DNA from: a virus
Lineage: Duplodnaviria > Heunggongvirae > Uroviricota > Caudoviricetes
Virus record (IMG/VR): IMGVR_UViG_2681813263_000013
DNA length: 4,500 bases
Strand: one strand, 5' to 3'
Shown here: positions 1-4,500 of the stretch, piece after piece
How positions within the stretch are numbered: position 1 is the first letter of the stretch
How the letters are laid out: each line of letters starts with the position of its first letter
Made by a program: the position numbers and the translations under genes
The notes under the pieces: generated by a model
What the model was told of the DNA's origin: nothing
The model's input: the letters and a program-made list of their open reading frames with translations, nothing else
Databases searched by the model: none

Positions 1-1
1 G

Positions 2-655
2 GAAAGATATTTCCCCTGCGTGAATATCTCCGGTGAGCCGGAGGCGTATTTCCGTATGTCGCCGGAAGACTGGCTGCAGGCAGAGATGCAGGGTGAGATT
101 GTGGCACTGGTCCACAGCCACCCCGGTGGTCTGCCCTGGCTGAGTGAGGCCGACCGGCGGCTGCAGGTGCAGAGTGATTTGCCGTGGTGGCTGGTCTGCC
201 GGGGGGCGATTCACAAGTTCCGCTGTGTGCCACATCTTACCGGGCGGCGCTTTGAGCACGGGGTGACGGACTGTTACACGCTGTTCCGGGATGCTTACCA
301 TCTGGCGGGGATTGAGATGCCGGATTTTCATCGTGAGGATGACTGGTGGCGTCACGGTCAGAATCTCTATCTGGATAATCTGGAGGCCACAGGGCTGTAT
401 CAGGTGCCGTTGTCAGCGGCGCAGCCGGGCGATGTGCTGCTGTGCTGTTTTGGTTCATCGGTGCCGAATCATGCCGCCATTTACTGCGGTGACGGCGGGC
501 TGCTGCACCATATTCCTGAACAACTGAGCAAACGAGAGAGGTACACCGACAAATGGCAGCGACGCACACACTCCCTCTGGCGTCACCGGGCATGGCACGC
601 ATCTGCCTTTACGGGGATTTGCAACGATTTGGCCGCCGCATCGACCTTCGTGTGA
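2..655 (+). CDS. K: Tail tip assembly protein K (JAB/MPN metalloprotease-like plus NlpC/P60 cysteine-peptidase-like domains); 5' end probably truncated by the window edge
   Basis: Frame is open from the first in-frame codon (2) to TGA at 653..655. Translation carries a JAMM motif H-x-H-x7-S-x2-D (HSHPGGLPWLSEAD; His codons 113..115 and 119..121, Ser 143..145, Asp 152..154). It also has an NlpC/P60-type Cys (DCYTLF, codon 272..274) and His (NHAAIY, codon 470..472). Sequence matches lambda gpK as I recall it. ATG at 56 corresponds to the classical 199-aa lambda start; the ORF track uses GTG at 20. Spacing to I and J reproduces lambda exactly. Confidence 0.93.
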   Translation, partial: ERYFPCVNISGEPEAYFRMSPEDWLQAEMQGEIVALVHSHPGGLPWLSEADRRLQVQSDLPWWLVCRGAIHKFRCVPHLTGRRFEHGVTDCYTLFRDAYHLAGIEMPDFHREDDWWRHGQNLYLDNLEATGLYQVPLSAAQPGDVLLCCFGSSVPNHAAIYCGDGGLLHHIPEQLSKRERYTDKWQRRTHSLWRHRAWHASAFTGICNDLAAASTFV

Positions 656-1224
656 AAACGGGTGCCGAAGCCATCCGGGCGATGGCCACACAGCTCCCTG
701 CGTTTCGTCAGAAGCTGAGCGACGGCTGGTATCAGGTGCGTATTGCCGGGCAGGATGTTAGCACGTCCGGATTAACGGCGCAGTTACATGAGGCTCTGCC
801 TGACGGCGCTGTGATTCATATTGTTCCCAGAGTCGCCGGGGCCAAGTCAGGTGGTGTATTCCAGATTGTCCTGGGAGCAGCCGCCATTGCCGGATCATTC
901 TTTACCGCCGGAGCCACCCTTGCAGCATGGGGGGCTGCCATTGGTGCCGGTGGTATGACCGGCATTCTGTTTTCTCTCGGTGCCAGTATGGTGCTCGGCG
1001 GTGTGGCTCAGATGCTGGCACCGAAAGCCAGAACTCCCCGCACACAGACAACGGATAACGGTAAGCAGAACACCTATTTCTCCTCACTGGATAACATGGT
1101 TGCCCAGGGCAATGTTATGCCTGTTCTGTATGGTGAAATGCGCGTGGGGTCACGTGTGGTATCTCAGGAGATCAGCACGGCAGACGAAGGGGACGGTGGT
1201 CAGGTTGTGGTGATTGGTCGCTGA
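553..1224 (+). CDS. I: Tail tip assembly protein I (ubiquitin-like N-terminal region, Gly/Ala-rich hydrophobic central segment)
   Basis: ATG at 553 with GAGG about 10 nt upstream; 223 codons; stop TGA 1222..1224. Starts 103 nt inside K in a different frame, as in lambda. Translation MAATHTLPLASPGMARICLYGDLQRFGRRIDLRVKTGAEAIRA... matches lambda gpI from memory. Confidence 0.93.
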   Translation: MAATHTLPLASPGMARICLYGDLQRFGRRIDLRVKTGAEAIRAMATQLPAFRQKLSDGWYQVRIAGQDVSTSGLTAQLHEALPDGAVIHIVPRVAGAKSGGVFQIVLGAAAIAGSFFTAGATLAAWGAAIGAGGMTGILFSLGASMVLGGVAQMLAPKARTPRTQTTDNGKQNTYFSSLDNMVAQGNVMPVLYGEMRVGSRVVSQEISTADEGDGGQVVVIGR

Positions 1225-1242
1225 TGCAAAATGTTTTATGTG

Positions 1243-1270
1243 AAACCGCCTGCGGGCGGTTTTGTCGTTT
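1243..1270 (+). terminator. Putative stem-loop in the I-J spacer (8-bp stem aaaccgcc / ggcggttt, 4-nt loop tgcg) followed by a T-rich tract tgtcgttt
   Basis: Read directly: 1243..1250 is the reverse complement of 1255..1262, followed by a T-rich run to 1270. It lies between the I stop (1224) and the J start (1285). Function as a terminator is unproven. Confidence 0.2.
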
Positions 1271-1284
1271 ATGGAGCATGACGA

Positions 1285-1298
1285 ATGGGTAAAGGCAG
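1285..1298 (+). other. J: Start of host-specificity gene J (first 14 nt, atgggtaaaggcag, encoding M-G-K-G), interrupted at 1298/1299
   Basis: ATG at 1285 lies 61 nt after the I stop, as in lambda, with GGAG at 1273..1276. The remainder of the J 5' end (S-S-K-G-H-T-P-R-E-A-K-D-N-L-K-S-T-Q-L-L-S-V-I-D-A-I-S-E) is found on the minus strand at 1878..1796, so the gene is broken here by an inversion. Confidence 0.7.
1289..1298. repeat. Left arm of a perfect 10-bp inverted repeat (gtaaaggcag) at the inversion breakpoint
   Basis: gtaaaggcag at 1289..1298 is the exact reverse complement of ctgcctttac at 1879..1888. Both adjoining bases differ, so the repeat is exactly 10 bp. Confidence 0.85.
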
Positions 1299-1794
1299 AT
1301 GCGCGCCATGCCCGGTGACGCCAGAGGGAGTGTGTGCGTCGCTGCCATTTGTCGGTGTACCTCTCTCGTTTGCTCAGTTGTTCAGGAATATGGTGCAGCA
1401 GCCCGCCGTCACCGCAGTAAATGGCGGCATGATTCGGCACCGATGAACCAAAACAGCACAGCAGCACATCGCCCGGCTGTGCCTCTGTCAGTGCGACACG
1501 GTAAAAACCCGTCACCTCCATATTGTCAAGATAGAGATTCTGACCGTTACGCCACCAGTCATCCCCGCGATGAAAATCCGGCATCTCAATCCCTGCCAGA
1601 TGATAAGCATCCCGGAACAGCGTGTAACAGTCCGTCACCCCGTGCTCAAAGCGCCGCCCGGTGAGATGCGGCACACAGCGGAACTTGTGAATCGCCCCCC
1701 GGCAGACCAGCCACCACGGCAAATCACTCTGCACCTGCAGCCGCCGGTCAGCCTCACTCAGCCAGGGCAGACCACCGGGATGACTGTGGACCAG
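1299..1794 (-). pseudogene. K: Inverted, 5'-truncated second copy of K (K'), diverged from copy 1 (about 93% amino-acid identity by eye); its 3' end overlaps the first 50 nt of a second I gene (minus strand 1348..1299)
   Basis: The reverse complement of 1299..1794 aligns colinearly with + strand 107..602, with scattered and clustered substitutions. The minus-strand translation reproduces K from LVHSHPGG through the NlpC/P60 Cys and His to RHRAW. The ORF-track minus ORF 1150..1734 is this copy reading through into unrelated sequence. The minus strand 1348..1299 encodes MAATHTLPLASPGMAR, the start of I'. Confidence 0.8.
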
Positions 1795-1795
1795 N

Positions 1796-1878
1796 CTTCG
1801 CTGATGGCATCGATCACACTCAGCAGCTGCGTGGACTTCAGGTTGTCCTTCGCTTCGCGCGGGGTATGCCCCTTACTG
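1796..1878 (-). pseudogene. J: Inverted fragment of the J 5' end (J nt 15..97, codons 5..32), joined to K' at an ambiguous base
   Basis: Reverse complement of 1796..1878 reads agc agt aag ggg cat acc ccg cgc gaa gcg aag gac aac ctg aag tcc acg cag ctg ctg agt gtg atc gat gcc atc agc gaa g, which is S-S-K-G-H-T-P-R-E-A-K-D-N-L-K-S-T-Q-L-L-S-V-I-D-A-I-S-E and continues the MGKG at 1285..1298. Position 1795 is n. Confidence 0.8.
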
Positions 1879-1888
1879 CTGCCTTTAC
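1879..1888. repeat. Right arm of the 10-bp inverted repeat (ctgcctttac)
   Basis: Exact reverse complement of 1289..1298. It lies within codons 17..20 of the second I allele. Confidence 0.85.
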
Positions 1889-2232
1889 GGGGATTTACAA
1901 CGATTTGGTCGCCGCATCGACCTTCGTGTGAAAACGGGGGCTGAAGCCATCCGGGCACTGGCCACACAGCTCCCGGCGTTTCGTCAGAAACTGAGTGACG
2001 GCTGGTATCAGGTGCGCATTGCCGGGCGTGATGCAGGTGAAACCGAATTGTCTGCCCGTCTTAATGAGCCGCTGGCAAATGGTGCAGTGATCCACATAGT
2101 ACCGCGTCTGGTGGGAGCTAAAAGTGGCGGTGTGTTTCAGGCGGTGCTGGGGGCGGCTGTTATGGCGGTTGCTATATGGATGCCGGGGGTAGGAATTATG
2201 GCGAGTAATCTGCTGTTTTCTCTCGGTGCCAG
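1879..2232 (+). CDS. I: Second, diverged allele of tail assembly protein I (I'), partial: codons about 18..135 on the + strand, first 17 codons displaced onto the minus strand (1348..1299), 3' end lost in the N gap
   Basis: In frame with I numbering, the translation reads (I)CLYGDLQRFGRRIDLRVKTGAEAIRALATQLPAFRQKLSDGWYQVRIAGRDAGETELSARLNEPLANGAVIHIVPRLVGAKSGGVFQAVLGAAVMAVAIWMPGVGIMASNLLFSLGA. The first roughly 150 nt are nearly identical to copy 1 (603..750); the centre is strongly diverged. The ORF track starts this at GTG 1928 and runs it through the N gap as X residues. Confidence 0.8.
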
Positions 2233-2913
2233 NNNNNNNNNNNNNNNNNNNNNNNNNNNNNNNNNNNNNNNNNNNNNNNNNNNNNNNNNNNNNNNNNNNN
2301 NNNNNNNNNNNNNNNNNNNNNNNNNNNNNNNNNNNNNNNNNNNNNNNNNNNNNNNNNNNNNNNNNNNNNNNNNNNNNNNNNNNNNNNNNNNNNNNNNNNN
2401 NNNNNNNNNNNNNNNNNNNNNNNNNNNNNNNNNNNNNNNNNNNNNNNNNNNNNNNNNNNNNNNNNNNNNNNNNNNNNNNNNNNNNNNNNNNNNNNNNNNN
2501 NNNNNNNNNNNNNNNNNNNNNNNNNNNNNNNNNNNNNNNNNNNNNNNNNNNNNNNNNNNNNNNNNNNNNNNNNNNNNNNNNNNNNNNNNNNNNNNNNNNN
2601 NNNNNNNNNNNNNNNNNNNNNNNNNNNNNNNNNNNNNNNNNNNNNNNNNNNNNNNNNNNNNNNNNNNNNNNNNNNNNNNNNNNNNNNNNNNNNNNNNNNN
2701 NNNNNNNNNNNNNNNNNNNNNNNNNNNNNNNNNNNNNNNNNNNNNNNNNNNNNNNNNNNNNNNNNNNNNNNNNNNNNNNNNNNNNNNNNNNNNNNNNNNN
2801 NNNNNNNNNNNNNNNNNNNNNNNNNNNNNNNNNNNNNNNNNNNNNNNNNNNNNNNNNNNNNNNNNNNNNNNNNNNNNNNNNNNNNNNNNNNNNNNNNNNN
2901 NNNNNNNNNNNNN
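2233..2913. other. Assembly gap (681 N)
   Basis: Continuous run of n. By lambda colinearity it should hide the 3' third of I', the I-J spacer and roughly the first 89 codons of J, about 590 nt expected. Confidence 0.95.
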
Positions 2914-3047
2914 GTGCTGGGTACGGAAGTGAAATATGACACGCCGATCACCCGGACCATCACGTCGGCAAACATTGACCGACTGCGTTTTACCTTCGGT
3001 GTACAGGCACTGGTGGAAACCACCTCAAAGGGAGACAGGAATCCGTC
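2914..3047 (+). CDS. J: Host specificity protein J, internal fragment on a separate contig end (about residues 90..133 in lambda J numbering)
   Basis: Frame 1 translation VLGTEVKYDTPITRTITSANIDRLRFTFGVQALVETTSKGDRNP matches lambda J from memory. Bounded by N runs on both sides. Confidence 0.85.
2965..3047. repeat. 83-nt direct repeat copy A (partner 3198..3280, 8 mismatches, about 90% identity) flanking the second gap
   Basis: Both copies encode SANIDRL-R-(F or L)-TFGVQALVETTSKGDRNP, the same segment of J. This points to overlapping contig ends from two J alleles rather than a real tandem repeat. Confidence 0.8.
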
Positions 3048-3197
3048 NNNNNNNNNNNNNNNNNNNNNNNNNNNNNNNNNNNNNNNNNNNNNNNNNNNNN
3101 NNNNNNNNNNNNNNNNNNNNNNNNNNNNNNNNNNNNNNNNNNNNNNNNNNNNNNNNNNNNNNNNNNNNNNNNNNNNNNNNNNNNNNNNNNNNNNNNN
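3048..3197. other. Assembly gap (150 N), probably spurious (negative gap)
   Basis: The flanks are near-identical copies of the same J segment, so the true sequence is probably continuous without an insertion. Confidence 0.85.
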
Positions 3198-4500
3198 TCG
3201 GCAAACATCGACCGTCTGCGCCTGACCTTCGGTGTGCAGGCACTGGTGGAAACCACCTCAAAGGGTGACCGGAATCCGTCGGAAGTCCGCCTGCTGGTTC
3301 AGATACAGCGTAACGGTGGCTGGGTGACGGAAAAAGACATCACCATTAAGGGCAAAACCACTTCGCAGTATCTGGCCTCGGTGGTGGTGGGTAACCTGCC
3401 GCCGCGCCCGTTTAATATCCGGATGCGCAGGATGACACCGGACAGCACCACAGACCAGCTGCAGAACAAAACGCTCTGGTCGTCATACACCGAAATCATC
3501 GATGTGAAACAGTGCTACCCGAACACGGCACTGGTCGGCGTACAGGTGGATTCGGAGCAGTTCGGCAGCCAGCAGGTGAGCCGTAATTATCATCTTCGCG
3601 GGCGCATTCTGCAGGTGCCGTCGAACTATAACCCGCAGACGCGGCAATACAGCGGTATCTGGGACGGAACGTTAAAACCGGCATACAGCAACAACATGGC
3701 CTGGTGTCTGTGGGATATGCTGACCCATCCGCGCTATGGCATGGGGAAACGTCTTGGTGCGGCAGATGTGGATAAATGGGCGCTGTATGTCATCGGCCAG
3801 TACTGTGACCAGTCGGTGCCGGACGGCTTTGGCAGCACGGAGCCGCGCATCACCTGTAATGCCTGGCTGACCACACAGCGCAAGGCGTGGGATGTGCTCA
3901 GTGATTTCTGCTCGGCGATGCGCTGTATGCCGGTATGGAACGGGCAGACGCTGACGTTCGTGCAGGACCGACAGTCGGATAAGGTGTGGGCCTATAACCG
4001 CAGTAATGTGGTGATGCCGGATGATGGCGCGCCGTTCCGCTACAGTTTCAGCGCCCTGAAAGACCGCCATAATGCCGTTGAGGTGAACTGGATTGACCCG
4101 GATAACGGCTGGGAGACGGCGACAGAGCTTGTGGAGGATACGCAGGCCATTGTCCGTTACGGTCGTAACGTCACGAAGATGGATGCCTTTGGCTGTACCA
4201 GCCGGGGGCAGGCACACCGCGCCGGGCTGTGGCTGATTAAAACGGAACTGCTGGAGACGCAGACCGTGGATTTCAGCGTGGGTGCTGAAGGGCTTCGTCA
4301 TGTACCGGGCGATGTCATTGAAATCTGCGATGATGACTATGCCGGTATCCGCACCGGCGGGCGCGTGCTGGCGGTGAACAGCCAGACCCGGACGCTGACG
4401 CTCGACCGTGAAATCACGCTGCCATCCTCCGGCACCACGCTGATAAGCCTGGTTGACGGGCAGGGGAATCCGGTCAGCGTGGAGGTCCAGTCCGTCACCG
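3198..4500 (+). CDS. J: Host specificity protein J (tail tip central fibre protein), internal portion; 5' end in gap, 3' end beyond the window
   Basis: Frame 3 is open for about 434 codons from 3198 to the window end, which is why it is absent from the ORF track (no stop in window). Translation SANIDRLRLTFGVQALVETTSKGDRNPSEVRLLVQIQRNGGWVTEKDITIKGKTTSQYLASVVVGNLPPRPFNIRMRRMTPDSTTDQLQNKTLWSSYTEIIDVKQCYPNTALVGVQVDSEQFGSQQVSRNYHLRGRILQVPSNYNPQTRQYSGIWDG... matches lambda J from memory with a few substitutions. Confidence 0.95.

Follow-up and report, generated by a model that had tools for sequence, protein, structure and literature searches.

In 2006, Iyer, Burroughs and Aravind proposed that the ubiquitin-like domain (Ubl) of TAPI is set free by the JAB domain of TAPK, through a cut at the C-terminal glycine of the Ubl (Iyer et al. 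2006, PMC1779556). In lambda virions, gpK is undetected and gpI is resolved only over residues 134/135–223 (PMC10721106, PMC12617516); the gpI trimer (three copies) stays in the tip. In the F-type pyocin of Pseudomonas aeruginosa, the N-terminus of the gpI homologue PA0640 is present in stalled precursors and gone from mature particles, and deletion of PA0639, the essential gpK homologue, leaves tip-less tubes (bioRxiv 10.64898/2026.02.24.707460). The JAMM enzyme HvJAMM1 cuts a linear SAMP1–MoaE fusion exactly after its C-terminal glycine (PMC4443979).

We analysed a 4,500-nt stretch of phage DNA (the window), in which nt 2–1224 carry a lambdoid pair of tail-tip assembly genes, K and I, ordinary in content and essentially lambda in sequence (Table 1). 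The K/I region was ~96–99% identical to lambda, phage 434 and related E. coli prophages, with nucleotide identity of 95.7–96.7% to lambda, 434 and PhiR46_1. Segment 1–1298 was 99.5% identical to the K–I–J region of an intact locus, L003, and 96.5% identical to phage 434. This near-identity, together with the L-K-I-J gene order, places the genes in the K–I part of the lambda tail-tip module. An earlier note on this DNA had correctly credited the link between K and I to published comparative analyses; the source is Iyer et al. (PMC1779556). Because the domain interpretation of K and I repeats theirs, it is already known and has been in print since 2006, and the window adds nothing new to the K/I question raised then.

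Table 1 Features of the 4,500-nt window, with the basis on which each was placed.
Feature	Position (nt)	Strand	Basis or remark
Gene K (tail-tip assembly protein K), codons 31–247 and stop	2..655	+	Translation; PHROG phrog_30 minor tail protein, E = 9e-145
JAB/MPN (Prok-JAB) domain of K, C-terminal two thirds, residues 31–98	2..205	+	PF14464
JAMM motif HSHPGGLPWLSEAD (H68, H70, S78, D81)	113..154	+	Read from the sequence
NlpC/P60 (C40 papain-like) domain of K, residues 111–224	242..583	+	PF00877
K/I overlap, 103 nt; I in the -1 frame relative to K	553..655	+	ORF coordinates
Gene I (tail-tip assembly/plug protein I), complete, 223 aa	553..1224	+	Lambda gpI match
Ubiquitin-like beta-grasp of I, residues 14–97	592..843	+	Ends at invariant P92, G96
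Gly/Ala-rich hydrophobic linker of I, residues 98–133	844..951	+	I-family alignments
C-terminal plug domain of I, residues 134–223	952..1221	+	Counterpart is the trimer in the lambda tail-tip lumen
Hairpin and T-run between I and J (AAACCGCC-TGCG-GGCGGTTT, then T)	1243..1263	+	Sequence
First 14 nt of gene J (ATGGGTAAAGGCAG)	1285..1298	+	L003 mapping; collinearity ends here
Flipped 600-nt block, bounded by the 10-nt inverted repeat GTAAAGGCAG / CTGCCTTTAC	1289..1888	.	
K', codons 66–233 of a second allele	1289–1794	-	In flipped block
Single n	1795		In flipped block
5' end of J	1796–1888	-	In flipped block
I', second I allele, ~codon 18 to ~codon 134	1879..2232	+	Direct repeat, 92%; PF06805, 78.8 bits; L003 mapping
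Gene J fragments	2914–3047 and 3198–4500 (within 2914..4500)	+	PF24801 FNIII-A_GpJ, PF13550, direct repeat, mapping

The window is the entire contig, so the record never holds an intact K. Numbered on the 247-aa K, the first 30 codons lie beyond the contig end, and E19 (in AESCG) falls ~12 codons upstream of nt 1. The remaining translation (nt 2–655) reads ...LVHSHPGGLPWLSEADRR..., in which H68-S-H70-PGGLPWL-S78-EA-D81 fits HxHx7Sx2D exactly (H68 at nt 113–115, H70 at 119–121, S78 at 143–145 and D81 at 152–154). The earlier note had described a complete JAMM signature followed by an NlpC/P60-type Cys and His. The HxHx7Sx2D residues are where it placed them, but the signature is incomplete here in that E19 lies outside the window; E19 is present in the AESCG of a full-length K (P0006, 99% identical) and of phage 434 K. 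Elsewhere, K is habitually annotated from Met49 as a 199-aa protein, and the catalytic Glu is lost. The second site was found as described, with D120–C121 (C121 at nt 272–274), N186–H187 (470–472) and H199 (506–508) in the NlpC/P60 order of Cys, then His, then a third polar residue, here also His.

Profile searches placed K in both peptidase families, each above its Pfam gathering score. PF14464 (Prok-JAB) scored 26.0 bits on the window fragment against a cutoff of 25, and 51.9 bits over residues 3–98 of P0006. PF00877 scored 48.0 bits on the window fragment against a cutoff of 23, covering model positions 1–105 of 105, and 49.2 bits on P0006. The K profile also matched solved MPN proteins, namely 2kks (E = 1.6e-6), 2kcq (1.5e-3) and JAMM1 (5lda), with AESCG and HSHP aligned to these MPN/JAMM proteins. 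The motif and domain matches are not due to chance, and by homology K is a member of the Prok-JAB/MPN and NlpC/P60 (C40) families.

The K family is large, with 2,777 clusters at 50% identity (E <= 1e-3), and one 247-aa cluster representative, standing for 12,883 member sequences, shares 99% identity with the window fragment. Conservation was scored across 54 cluster representatives at 31–59% identity. H68, H70, D81, H187 and H199 were invariant in these distant relatives (54/54), C121 and E19 were each kept in 53 of the 54, and S78 in 52, the other two having Thr. The two catalytic sites are the most conserved columns of the protein.

Gene I is complete and matched lambda gpI (PDB 8iyk, 8iyl, 8k35 and 8xcg) over its full length, with E = 1.9e-139 and 4 mismatches in 223 residues. 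Of its three parts, the C-terminal one is seen in the virion: chains in PDB 9e7m span gpI residues 133–222, gpI has been modelled over residues 135–223 (PMC10721106) and 134–222 (PMC12617516), and the linker is not resolved in these structures (PMC10721106, PMC12617516). Fold comparison supports the earlier claim of a beta-grasp fold, of the ThiS/MoaD/SAMP type, for the N-terminal domain; the best structural matches to the gpI Ubl were SAMP1, MoaD and CysO. A single-sequence AF2 model of gpI (pLDDT 35.7) was unusable and was discarded. Separately, I is often annotated as a 190-aa protein that begins at a GTG (Val34) and so lacks the first two Ubl strands.

The Ubl ends in VPRVAG-A, with G96–A97 at nt 838–843. 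P92 and G96 were invariant in all 70 I sequences compared, including those from Pseudomonas, Serratia, Xenorhabdus and Shewanella. The residue after G96 was not Gly; it was Ala in 30 enterobacterial sequences and Ser in two solved Pseudomonas-type homologues. By hhalign, the I family aligned with E. coli MoaD at E = 0.35, placing G96 opposite G80, the penultimate Gly of MoaD, a weak alignment that is only suggestive for the residue register. Searched against PDB sequences, the I-family profile recovered gpI homologues only and did not reach ThiS, MoaD or ubiquitin, so that no significant sequence-profile link of I to ThiS/MoaD was obtained. The proposed relationship therefore depends on the fold and on the PSI-BLAST result reported in PMC1779556.

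On direct testing, the domain and fold claims of the earlier note survive. The analysis establishes which genes these are, the membership of K in two peptidase families, its catalytic residues and how well they are conserved, the beta-grasp of I with its conserved Gly, and the conserved L-K-I-J order. Taken as a whole, the note's observation is partly confirmed and its interpretation partly supported; the parts without support are conjugation, the fixed-stoichiometry reading of the overlap and the use of K' as corroboration.

The K/I overlap is real, and the phage 434 annotation has it at the same coordinates. The spacing of the two genes differs elsewhere (a 54-nt gap in Pseudomonas, a 1-nt gap in Xenorhabdus and a 4-nt overlap in Azotobacter), and the 103-nt overlap is therefore peculiar to the lambda lineage. 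Distant K homologues lack K residues ~228–247, which the 3' part of the overlap encodes. The idea that the overlap marks an enzyme–substrate pair of fixed stoichiometry is not supported, given this lineage specificity and the virion itself, from which K is absent and in which the I trimer stays in the tip. The pairing of the genes extends further than the overlap: in the loci of the Pseudomonas F-pyocin, of Xenorhabdus and of Azotobacter, a JAB plus NlpC/P60 gene with all catalytic residues immediately precedes I. At a Shewanella locus, unrelated genes (Arc, ANT and P22_AR_N families) lie directly upstream of I, and the locus is thus uninformative on K. Inspection of the overlap by eye found no convincing X XXY YYZ slippery heptamer for a -1 frameshift K–I fusion; we take the K–I fusion proteins in databases (for example, P0017) to be probable single-base frameshifts. 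Downstream of I, the phage 434 equivalent of the I–J hairpin is annotated as a terminator, and a scan for consensus terminators did not call the hairpin in the window.

Beyond the start of J, the window is no longer a phage tail locus in its natural order. Segment 1–1298 maps to L003 5449–6746 and stops there, giving way to the flipped block. The earlier note had found the same catalytic residues in an inverted copy, K', and had counted this as corroboration. K' does keep H68, H70, S78, D81, C121, H187 and H199 (PF00877, 46.4 bits), but it is a gene fragment. It opens at codon 66 next to one ambiguous 'n' and has no E19; past residue 233 the sequence turns unrelated, being antisense to the I–J spacer and the start of J. 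The I' allele runs into a 681-N gap, and the two J fragments are parted by 150 N yet overlap by 83 nt in reference coordinates. Searching 5,426 complete E. coli genomes for the junctions of the flipped block returned none, with each half present in more than 4,200. E. coli IH5 came up as a match to the doubled arrangement and was rejected, as its palindrome is centred inside K, between rRNA and tRNA genes.

The arrangement at 1289–2232 could in principle be genuine, produced when two prophage tail modules underwent inversion or inverted duplication at the 10-bp inverted repeat; both junctions fall exactly on the inverted 10-mer, a pattern that microhomology recombination or template switching would give. 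We consider such an event very improbable. Inverted repeats of 10 nt are common by chance, and several of the 22 inverted pairs listed for the window are exact 10-mers; the 'n' at 1795 sits where two non-adjacent segments join; and the pieces come from at least two alleles (99.5–100% versus 92–93.5% identity to L003). The record is moreover a stand-alone 4.5-kb scaffold with two N-gaps and overlapping J pieces, its junctions are absent from the complete genomes, and chimeric K proteins (P0001, P0002) occur in other draft contigs. K' is a second prophage allele, truncated, that mis-joining brought into a 4.5-kb mosaic draft scaffold; it lies outside the biology of K and I, and the 'inverted second copy' should count as evidence for nothing. 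As a pair of alleles, the two K sequences of the scaffold differ with dN/dS = 0.15 and no catalytic change.

Considered as a whole, the evidence is probably best explained by removal of the Ubl of I by the JAB domain of K during tip assembly, with the C-terminal part of I staying behind as a plug. K would be a non-structural assembly factor that combines a JAMM/MPN zinc metalloprotease with an NlpC/P60 papain-like cysteine peptidase. I has three parts, a MoaD/SAMP-like Ubl ending in VPRVAG96-A97, a hydrophobic Gly/Ala-rich linker and a C-terminal domain whose trimer comes to plug the lumen of the tail tip, where it binds gpJ and the C-terminal end of the tape-measure protein. The full-length I precursor would join the nascent tip with J and L; the JAB domain would then bind the Ubl and cut the linear peptide bond at G96–A97, as JAMM enzymes free SAMP1 and MoaD. 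The Ubl and K would leave, the C-terminal part of I alone would remain, and loss of the Ubl would license docking of the tape measure and tube on the tip. That K is the protease acting on I, that JAB rather than NlpC/P60 is the cutter, and the exact cut site are what we infer. The earlier note had spoken of processing or conjugation: processing is indirectly backed by the lambda and F-pyocin structures and proteomics, and conjugation is not supported, as the Pfam hits of the called genes from U to J include no E1- or E2-type family.

Several observations sit awkwardly with cleavage by JAB at G96. Host proteases of E. coli remove the N-terminus of PA0640 when it is expressed by itself (bioRxiv 10.64898/2026.02.24.707460), the N-terminus missing from gpI in lambda could simply be disordered, the residue after G96 is Ala or Ser instead of Gly, and the model gives no role to the equally conserved NlpC/P60 domain. 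In the mass-spectrometry table for lambda virions, gpI is represented by one peptide (9.9% coverage) with no position, so the table cannot separate cleaved from disordered gpI.

Alternatively, the NlpC/P60 domain may remove the Ubl or cut elsewhere in the linker, with JAB mainly as a Ubl-docking module or as a trimmer at a second site. C121, H187 and H199 are as strictly conserved as the JAMM residues, and virion gpI is resolved only from residue 134, ~37 residues past G96, which is compatible with a cut within the linker; Iyer et al. themselves raise NlpC/P60 as a possible Ubl processor, its papain-like fold being common to most eukaryotic DUBs (PMC1779556). Docking alone, however, would not need invariant JAMM residues, and cutting after the MoaD/SAMP Gly has biochemical precedent for JAMM enzymes, whereas we found none for NlpC/P60 enzymes, which leaves this assignment unlikely. 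The structural papers present K as an assembly factor only (PMC10721106, PMC12617516), and K might be a non-catalytic tip chaperone or maturation factor, with the N-terminus of I disordered or lost to host proteases as in PA0640 expressed alone. It is difficult to see why such a chaperone should have two complete catalytic sites as its most conserved columns in relatives at 31–59% identity, or why these residues are unchanged between the scaffold alleles at their low dN/dS; moreover, in stalled tip precursors the PA0640 N-terminus persists, to disappear only at maturation, which suggests a regulated, specific cut. We regard a non-catalytic K as unlikely. An extension that would use both peptidases has gpK as a two-headed maturation protease forming a proteolytic checkpoint in siphophage and F-tailocin tails, JAB stripping the Ubl from gpI and NlpC/P60 making a second cut, with gpH -> gpH*, the tape-measure cleavage of lambda (PMC12617516), as the candidate; we put this forward as a speculative and improbable elaboration.

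Proteins of the NlpC/P60 family usually serve as peptidoglycan endopeptidases. The PF00877 and weak NCBIfam matches of K are to cell-wall peptidases, and the peptidoglycan-cutting activity of lambda is without an assigned protein (PMC11101478), so that the domain could act in crossing the cell wall at infection, with no relation to I. This is very unlikely: gpK was undetected in lambda virions by mass spectrometry and its homologue in mature F-pyocin, deletion of the homologue stops the tip from being assembled and does not act at killing or entry, and lambda virions contain no such enzyme (PMC12617516). As gpK is not in virions, the literature speaks against an infection role. Conjugation of the Ubl through its C-terminal Gly to another tail protein appears barely credible. 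The MoaD/SAMP fold and conserved Gly of I suit it, and such a glycine could allow ThiS/MoaD-like interactions (PMC1779556), but the Ubl is an N-terminal fusion that would need prior cutting off, the Gly-Gly position reads G-A or G-S, and the published tail-tip structures describe neither extra density nor an adduct (PMC10721106, PMC12617516). No E1- or E2-type family was among the Pfam hits of the called genes U to J of L003 or of the Pseudomonas, Xenorhabdus and Azotobacter loci, and for this reason we do not file K–I as a ubiquitin-like conjugation system.

If K does remove the Ubl of gpI, lambda would carry a virus-encoded pair resembling a Ubl and its DUB as an assembly checkpoint. This would be a bacterial-virus relative of ubiquitin-precursor processing, and would name the protease behind the cleavage described in the 2026 F-pyocin preprint.

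Among known systems, lambda gpK/gpI, phage 434 and the E. coli lambdoid prophages have the same genes as the window and share the 103-nt overlap, the I–J hairpin and the L-K-I-J order. There is no substantive difference from lambda or 434, apart from the record itself, which truncates K at the contig end and carries a mis-joined second allele further downstream. The F-type pyocin of P. aeruginosa is more distant (~40% identity for K, 30–36% for I) and has the lambda-type gene order. PA0639 combines the same two peptidase domains and keeps every catalytic residue, and PA0640, the tip plug, has the same three-part layout and the conserved IVP-x-x-G-S-K motif. The plug loses its N-terminus as the particle matures, and the K homologue, which is essential, does not occur in particles (bioRxiv 10.64898/2026.02.24.707460). 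Unlike in lambda, the two pyocin genes are 54 nt apart instead of overlapping, and Pseudomonas K is without the ~20-residue C-terminal extension of lambda-type K.

HvJAMM1–SAMP1 and DRJAMM/MoaD–MoaE likewise set a JAMM metalloprotease beside a MoaD-like beta-grasp protein with a C-terminal Gly; Mec+/CysO and QbsD/QbsE are further JAMM/Ubl pairs. DRJAMM is reported to cut a natural MoaD–MoaE fusion. The JAMM–SAMP/MoaD/ThiS systems work in sulfur transfer or in the reversible modification of proteins, and an E1-like enzyme is part of them, whereas K–I is without an E1. K–I differs from the JAMM–SAMP systems also in having its Ubl fused to a virion structural protein, a protease with a second, NlpC/P60 domain, and G-A or G-S at the Gly-Gly position. 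Ubiquitin precursor fusions and their DUBs offer a further parallel, in that a linear ubiquitin-fold fusion is freed by a dedicated peptidase. Ub–ribosomal protein fusions are one example of eukaryotic ubiquitin precursors processed by DUBs, and among archaea CsRpn11 processes the CsUb precursor (PMC6043591). Here as in precursor fusions, the Ubl may be a transient solubility or shielding module. Released ubiquitin is reused, whereas in K–I the C-terminal partner is kept and the Ubl appears to be discarded. In phage T5, the gpI C-terminal trimer has a positional counterpart in the plug domain of pb3, which fills the equivalent site in the tail-tip lumen (PMC10721106). The T5 plug differs in being an in-line domain of the hub protein, PMC10721106 describing no separate I-like or K-like T5 gene, whereas in lambda the plug is a separate protein, I, encoded beside K.

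The window is the whole of contig CXDG01000260.1 from draft assembly GCA_001252135.1, in reverse orientation, and carries a lambdoid tail-tip module. Over nt 1–1298 it is 95.7% identical to lambda, 96–97% to PhiR46_1 and 434, and 99.5% to an intact prophage locus used as reference (L003; gene order U-V-G-T-H-M-L-K-I-J), and its I differs from the lambda gpI chains (PDB 8iyk, 8iyl, 8k35 and 8xcg) at 4 of 223 residues. K–I is a textbook locus, and K and I had been read correctly at first sight. The bioinformatic interpretation is already in print, and the earlier note rightly credited it to published comparative analysis: Iyer, Burroughs and Aravind (2006) described the assembly protein K (TAPK) as JAB plus NlpC/P60 and the plug protein I (TAPI) as an N-terminal ubiquitin-like domain (Ubl), a Gly-rich linker and a C-terminal domain, and proposed that the JAB domain frees the Ubl by a cut at its last glycine (PMC1779556). 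Their view of I as missing from the mature tail was later revised (PMC1779556; PMC10721106; PMC12617516). Whether K cuts I is a worthwhile question, yet not a new one, nor one that the window sequence sharpens.

In translation, the frame from nt 2 enters K at codon 31 and reaches a stop at 653–655 (numbering of the 247-residue protein). The JAMM signature had been called complete: the HSHPGGLPWLSEAD residues at nt 113–154 do match the HxHx7Sx2D motif, but the catalytic glutamate, E19, lies upstream of nt 1, past the contig end, so that completeness is inferred from near-identical homologues. Downstream follow the expected NlpC/P60 residues C121 (nt 272–274), H187 (470–472) and H199 (506–508). 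The fragment passed both Pfam thresholds (NLPC_P60, 48 bits, threshold 23; Prok-JAB, 26 bits, threshold 25), in agreement with the proposed JAB/MPN and NlpC/P60 families, and a full-length 247-residue K, 99% identical, scored 51.9 and 49.2 bits on the two models. A profile of K relatives matched the solved MPN/JAMM proteins 2kks, 2kcq and JAMM1 (5lda); in the profile alignments shown for 2kks and 2kcq, AESCG and HSHP of K paired with their counterparts.

An exhaustive search (E ≤ 1e-3) placed K relatives in 2,777 clusters at 50% identity. Among 54 aligned full-length representatives (31–59% identity to K), H68, H70, D81, H187 and H199 were invariant, E19 and C121 were each retained in 53, and S78 was retained in 52, with Thr in the other two; these residues rank among very few conserved columns. 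In Pseudomonas K no catalytic residue is missing and the two Pfam models give 76.7 and 59.4 bits; a JAB plus NlpC/P60 gene stands immediately 5' of I there and also in the Xenorhabdus and Azotobacter loci. As judged from these alignments, both peptidase centres are maintained, which favours catalysis and disfavours a purely chaperone-like K. In a Shewanella prophage (VFSJ01000080.1), genes with Arc, ANT and P22_AR_N family matches precede the I homologue in place of K, suggestive of a module boundary or of an insertion between the two genes.

For I, a single-sequence structure model was unusable; modelling from 70 aligned sequences, including a divergent branch seeded from the solved Pseudomonas homologue, gave residues 10–94 at pLDDT ~70–78 in the order β-β-α-α-β-α-β. 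All of the top 50 Foldseek matches were ubiquitin-fold proteins, SAMP1 and MoaD being the nearest folds to the Ubl, which bears out the β-grasp proposed for this end of I. Sequence profiles alone did not reach ThiS/MoaD from I, so the assignment rests on fold; on the predicted structure, the front of I is a ubiquitin-like, MoaD/SAMP-like β-grasp. The C-terminal part was modelled at low confidence, which fits its known state, a trimer held by gpJ. P92 and G96 were invariant in 70/70 sequences (...IVPRVAG-A/S-K...), and in a weak profile alignment G96 pairs with MoaD's penultimate Gly.

I (nt 553–1224, 223 aa) shares 103 nt with K, as the overlap noticed earlier implied. Divergent K proteins terminate near lambda-K residue 226–228, so the final ~20 residues of the lambda type form an extension specific to that lineage, which runs across the coding region of the first strands of I. 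In the first part of the overlap (553–655), the conserved K core (KWQRRTHSLWRHR) lies over I residues 1–13, an N-terminal leader preceding the first Ubl strand; in the second, conserved β1–β2 of I lies over the K tail (~228–247), absent from divergent K. From its sequence the overlap looks like a mutual extension of both genes, and no convincing slippery heptamer for a K–I frameshift fusion was found within it. Its suggested role in fixing enzyme–substrate stoichiometry does not survive: K–I spacing varies (the genes lie 54 nt apart in Pseudomonas and 1 nt apart in Xenorhabdus, and overlap by 4 nt in Azotobacter), the K tail is lineage-specific, and K is predicted to be catalytic and is absent from particles, while the I trimer stays in the tip.

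The recorded starts of both genes conceal the domains at issue. The K call, from Met49, loses the JAMM glutamate and leaves the NLPC_P60 match only; the I call, from Val34, loses Ubl strands β1–β2, though L19, G21 and F26, ahead of that start, are invariant in 70 homologues. Four K homologues from draft assemblies (P0001, P0002, P0017 and P0053) are K proteins with internal duplications or K–I fusions, the latter apparently the product of frameshifts of a single base or of deletions; errors in sequencing or assembly may therefore account for part of the 'TAPI fused to JAB' architectures described in prophages.

Pieces of the window mapped onto the reference prophage locus L003, with gaps and recorded gene calls.
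Feature	Window (nt)	Strand	L003 (nt)	Identity	Remark
Segment A	1–1298		5449–6746	99.5%	
Segment B	1289–1794		6060 back to 5555	93.5%	
Gap	1795				single n
Segment C	1796–1888		6829 back to 6737	100%	
Segment D	1879–2232		6051 onward	92%	
Gap	2233–2913				681 N
Segment E	2914–3047		6997–7130	100%	
Gap	3048–3197				150 N
Segment F	3198–4500		7048–8350	98.8%	
K call	56–655	+			starts Met49; 199 aa; classic lambda annotation
I call	652–1224	+			starts GTG at Val34; 190 aa
ORF call	3672–4301	-			209 aa; antisense to J; no Pfam match

Segment A and reversed C form a single continuous allele, and reversed B and D a second, K'–I'. The 600-nt block 1289–1888 is inverted relative to its flanks, with an exact 10-nt inverted repeat (GTAAAGGCAG/CTGCCTTTAC) at its edges; flipped, it yields two collinear partial K-I-J copies of different alleles, joined at the n. 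The window junctions occurred in 0 of 5,426 complete E. coli genomes and each junction half in more than 4,200 of them, and internally duplicated, chimeric K proteins are found on other draft contigs as well. Read most simply, the window is a scaffold into which several lambdoid prophage alleles were mis-joined, the inverted block probably being an assembly or scaffolding chimera. At 10 nt, the repeat at the edges of that block is too short for the word sizes with which short-read assemblers normally work. K' is a 5'-truncated second allele, codon 66 to 233, followed by unrelated antisense sequence. It differs from K at 30 nt (dN/dS = 0.15), and the catalytic residues are unchanged, as the earlier note had seen; this is ordinary purifying selection, adding nothing beyond thousands of homologues, and a truncated allele in such a scaffold does not corroborate K. 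The alleles differ at ten amino acids, nine of them within 28 residues (142–169; nt 335–418 versus 1483–1566) between the catalytic Cys and His of the NlpC/P60 domain, a stretch that may be a variable surface loop and possibly a partner-specific contact.

In reference coordinates segments E and F share 83 nt, at 90% identity, yet 150 N lie between them in the window; they are two alleles of J placed head to tail by scaffolding, not a real tandem duplication in J. The plus strand opposite the 209-residue ORF gave strong Phage-tail_3 and FNIII-A_GpJ matches while J itself is uncalled, and the ORF is almost certainly a spurious call, arising from N-gaps that break J. Between I and J, nt 1243–1263 form a G+C-rich hairpin with a short T-run; the phage 434 record annotates a terminator at the equivalent site, and a consensus terminator scan made no call at the hairpin. 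The 'complete' genome of E. coli IH5 (NZ_CP168269.1, 4804048–4810125) holds a near-perfect palindrome, J-I-K then K-I-J, centred inside K, with rRNA and tRNA genes on either side; every copy of K and J in it carries a partial-pseudogene annotation. Either a fold-back artefact of assembly or a genuine palindromic remnant seems to lie behind it, and it is unrelated to the window junctions.

In lambda, cryo-EM shows a gpI trimer, residues 134/135–223 only, plugging the tip lumen (PMC10721106, PMC12617516), and mass spectrometry did not detect gpK (PMC10721106). In an F-type pyocin, PA0640, the gpI homologue, lacks its N-terminus in mature particles and retains it in assembly-stalled precursors; deletion of the gpK homologue PA0639, itself absent from particles, gives tip-less tubes, and the preprint leaves the PA0640 cleavage mechanism unexplained (bioRxiv 10.64898/2026.02.24.707460). 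On the mechanism we consider most likely, I would enter the nascent tip at full length, K would bind the Ubl through its JAB domain and cleave at G96–A97, Ubl and K would then depart, and the rest of I would remain as a plug gripping the tape-measure C-terminus, cleavage licensing tip–tube docking. As a whole, this seems to us somewhat probable. Gene identity, families, fold, conserved residues and synteny come from the present analysis; N-terminus removal in F-pyocins, the absence of K from particles and the essentiality of its homologue come from the papers. That K is the protease, which of its domains acts and the exact site we infer.

Less probably, the NlpC/P60 domain of K performs the cut. 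Host proteases could also cut I with K non-catalytic, a rival that the conservation of both peptidase centres across the 54 representatives tells against. A role for K as a cell-wall hydrolase seems improbable; a separate speculation, that the gpI N-terminus is a lambda peptidoglycan hydrolase (PMC11101478), misfits a small MoaD-like β-grasp. True conjugation of the Ubl, which the earlier note had entertained, is disfavoured by its position as an N-terminal fusion, and no E1-like or E2-like family was among the Pfam matches of genes in the L003, Pseudomonas, Xenorhabdus, Azotobacter or Shewanella loci. [quoted passage not shown]
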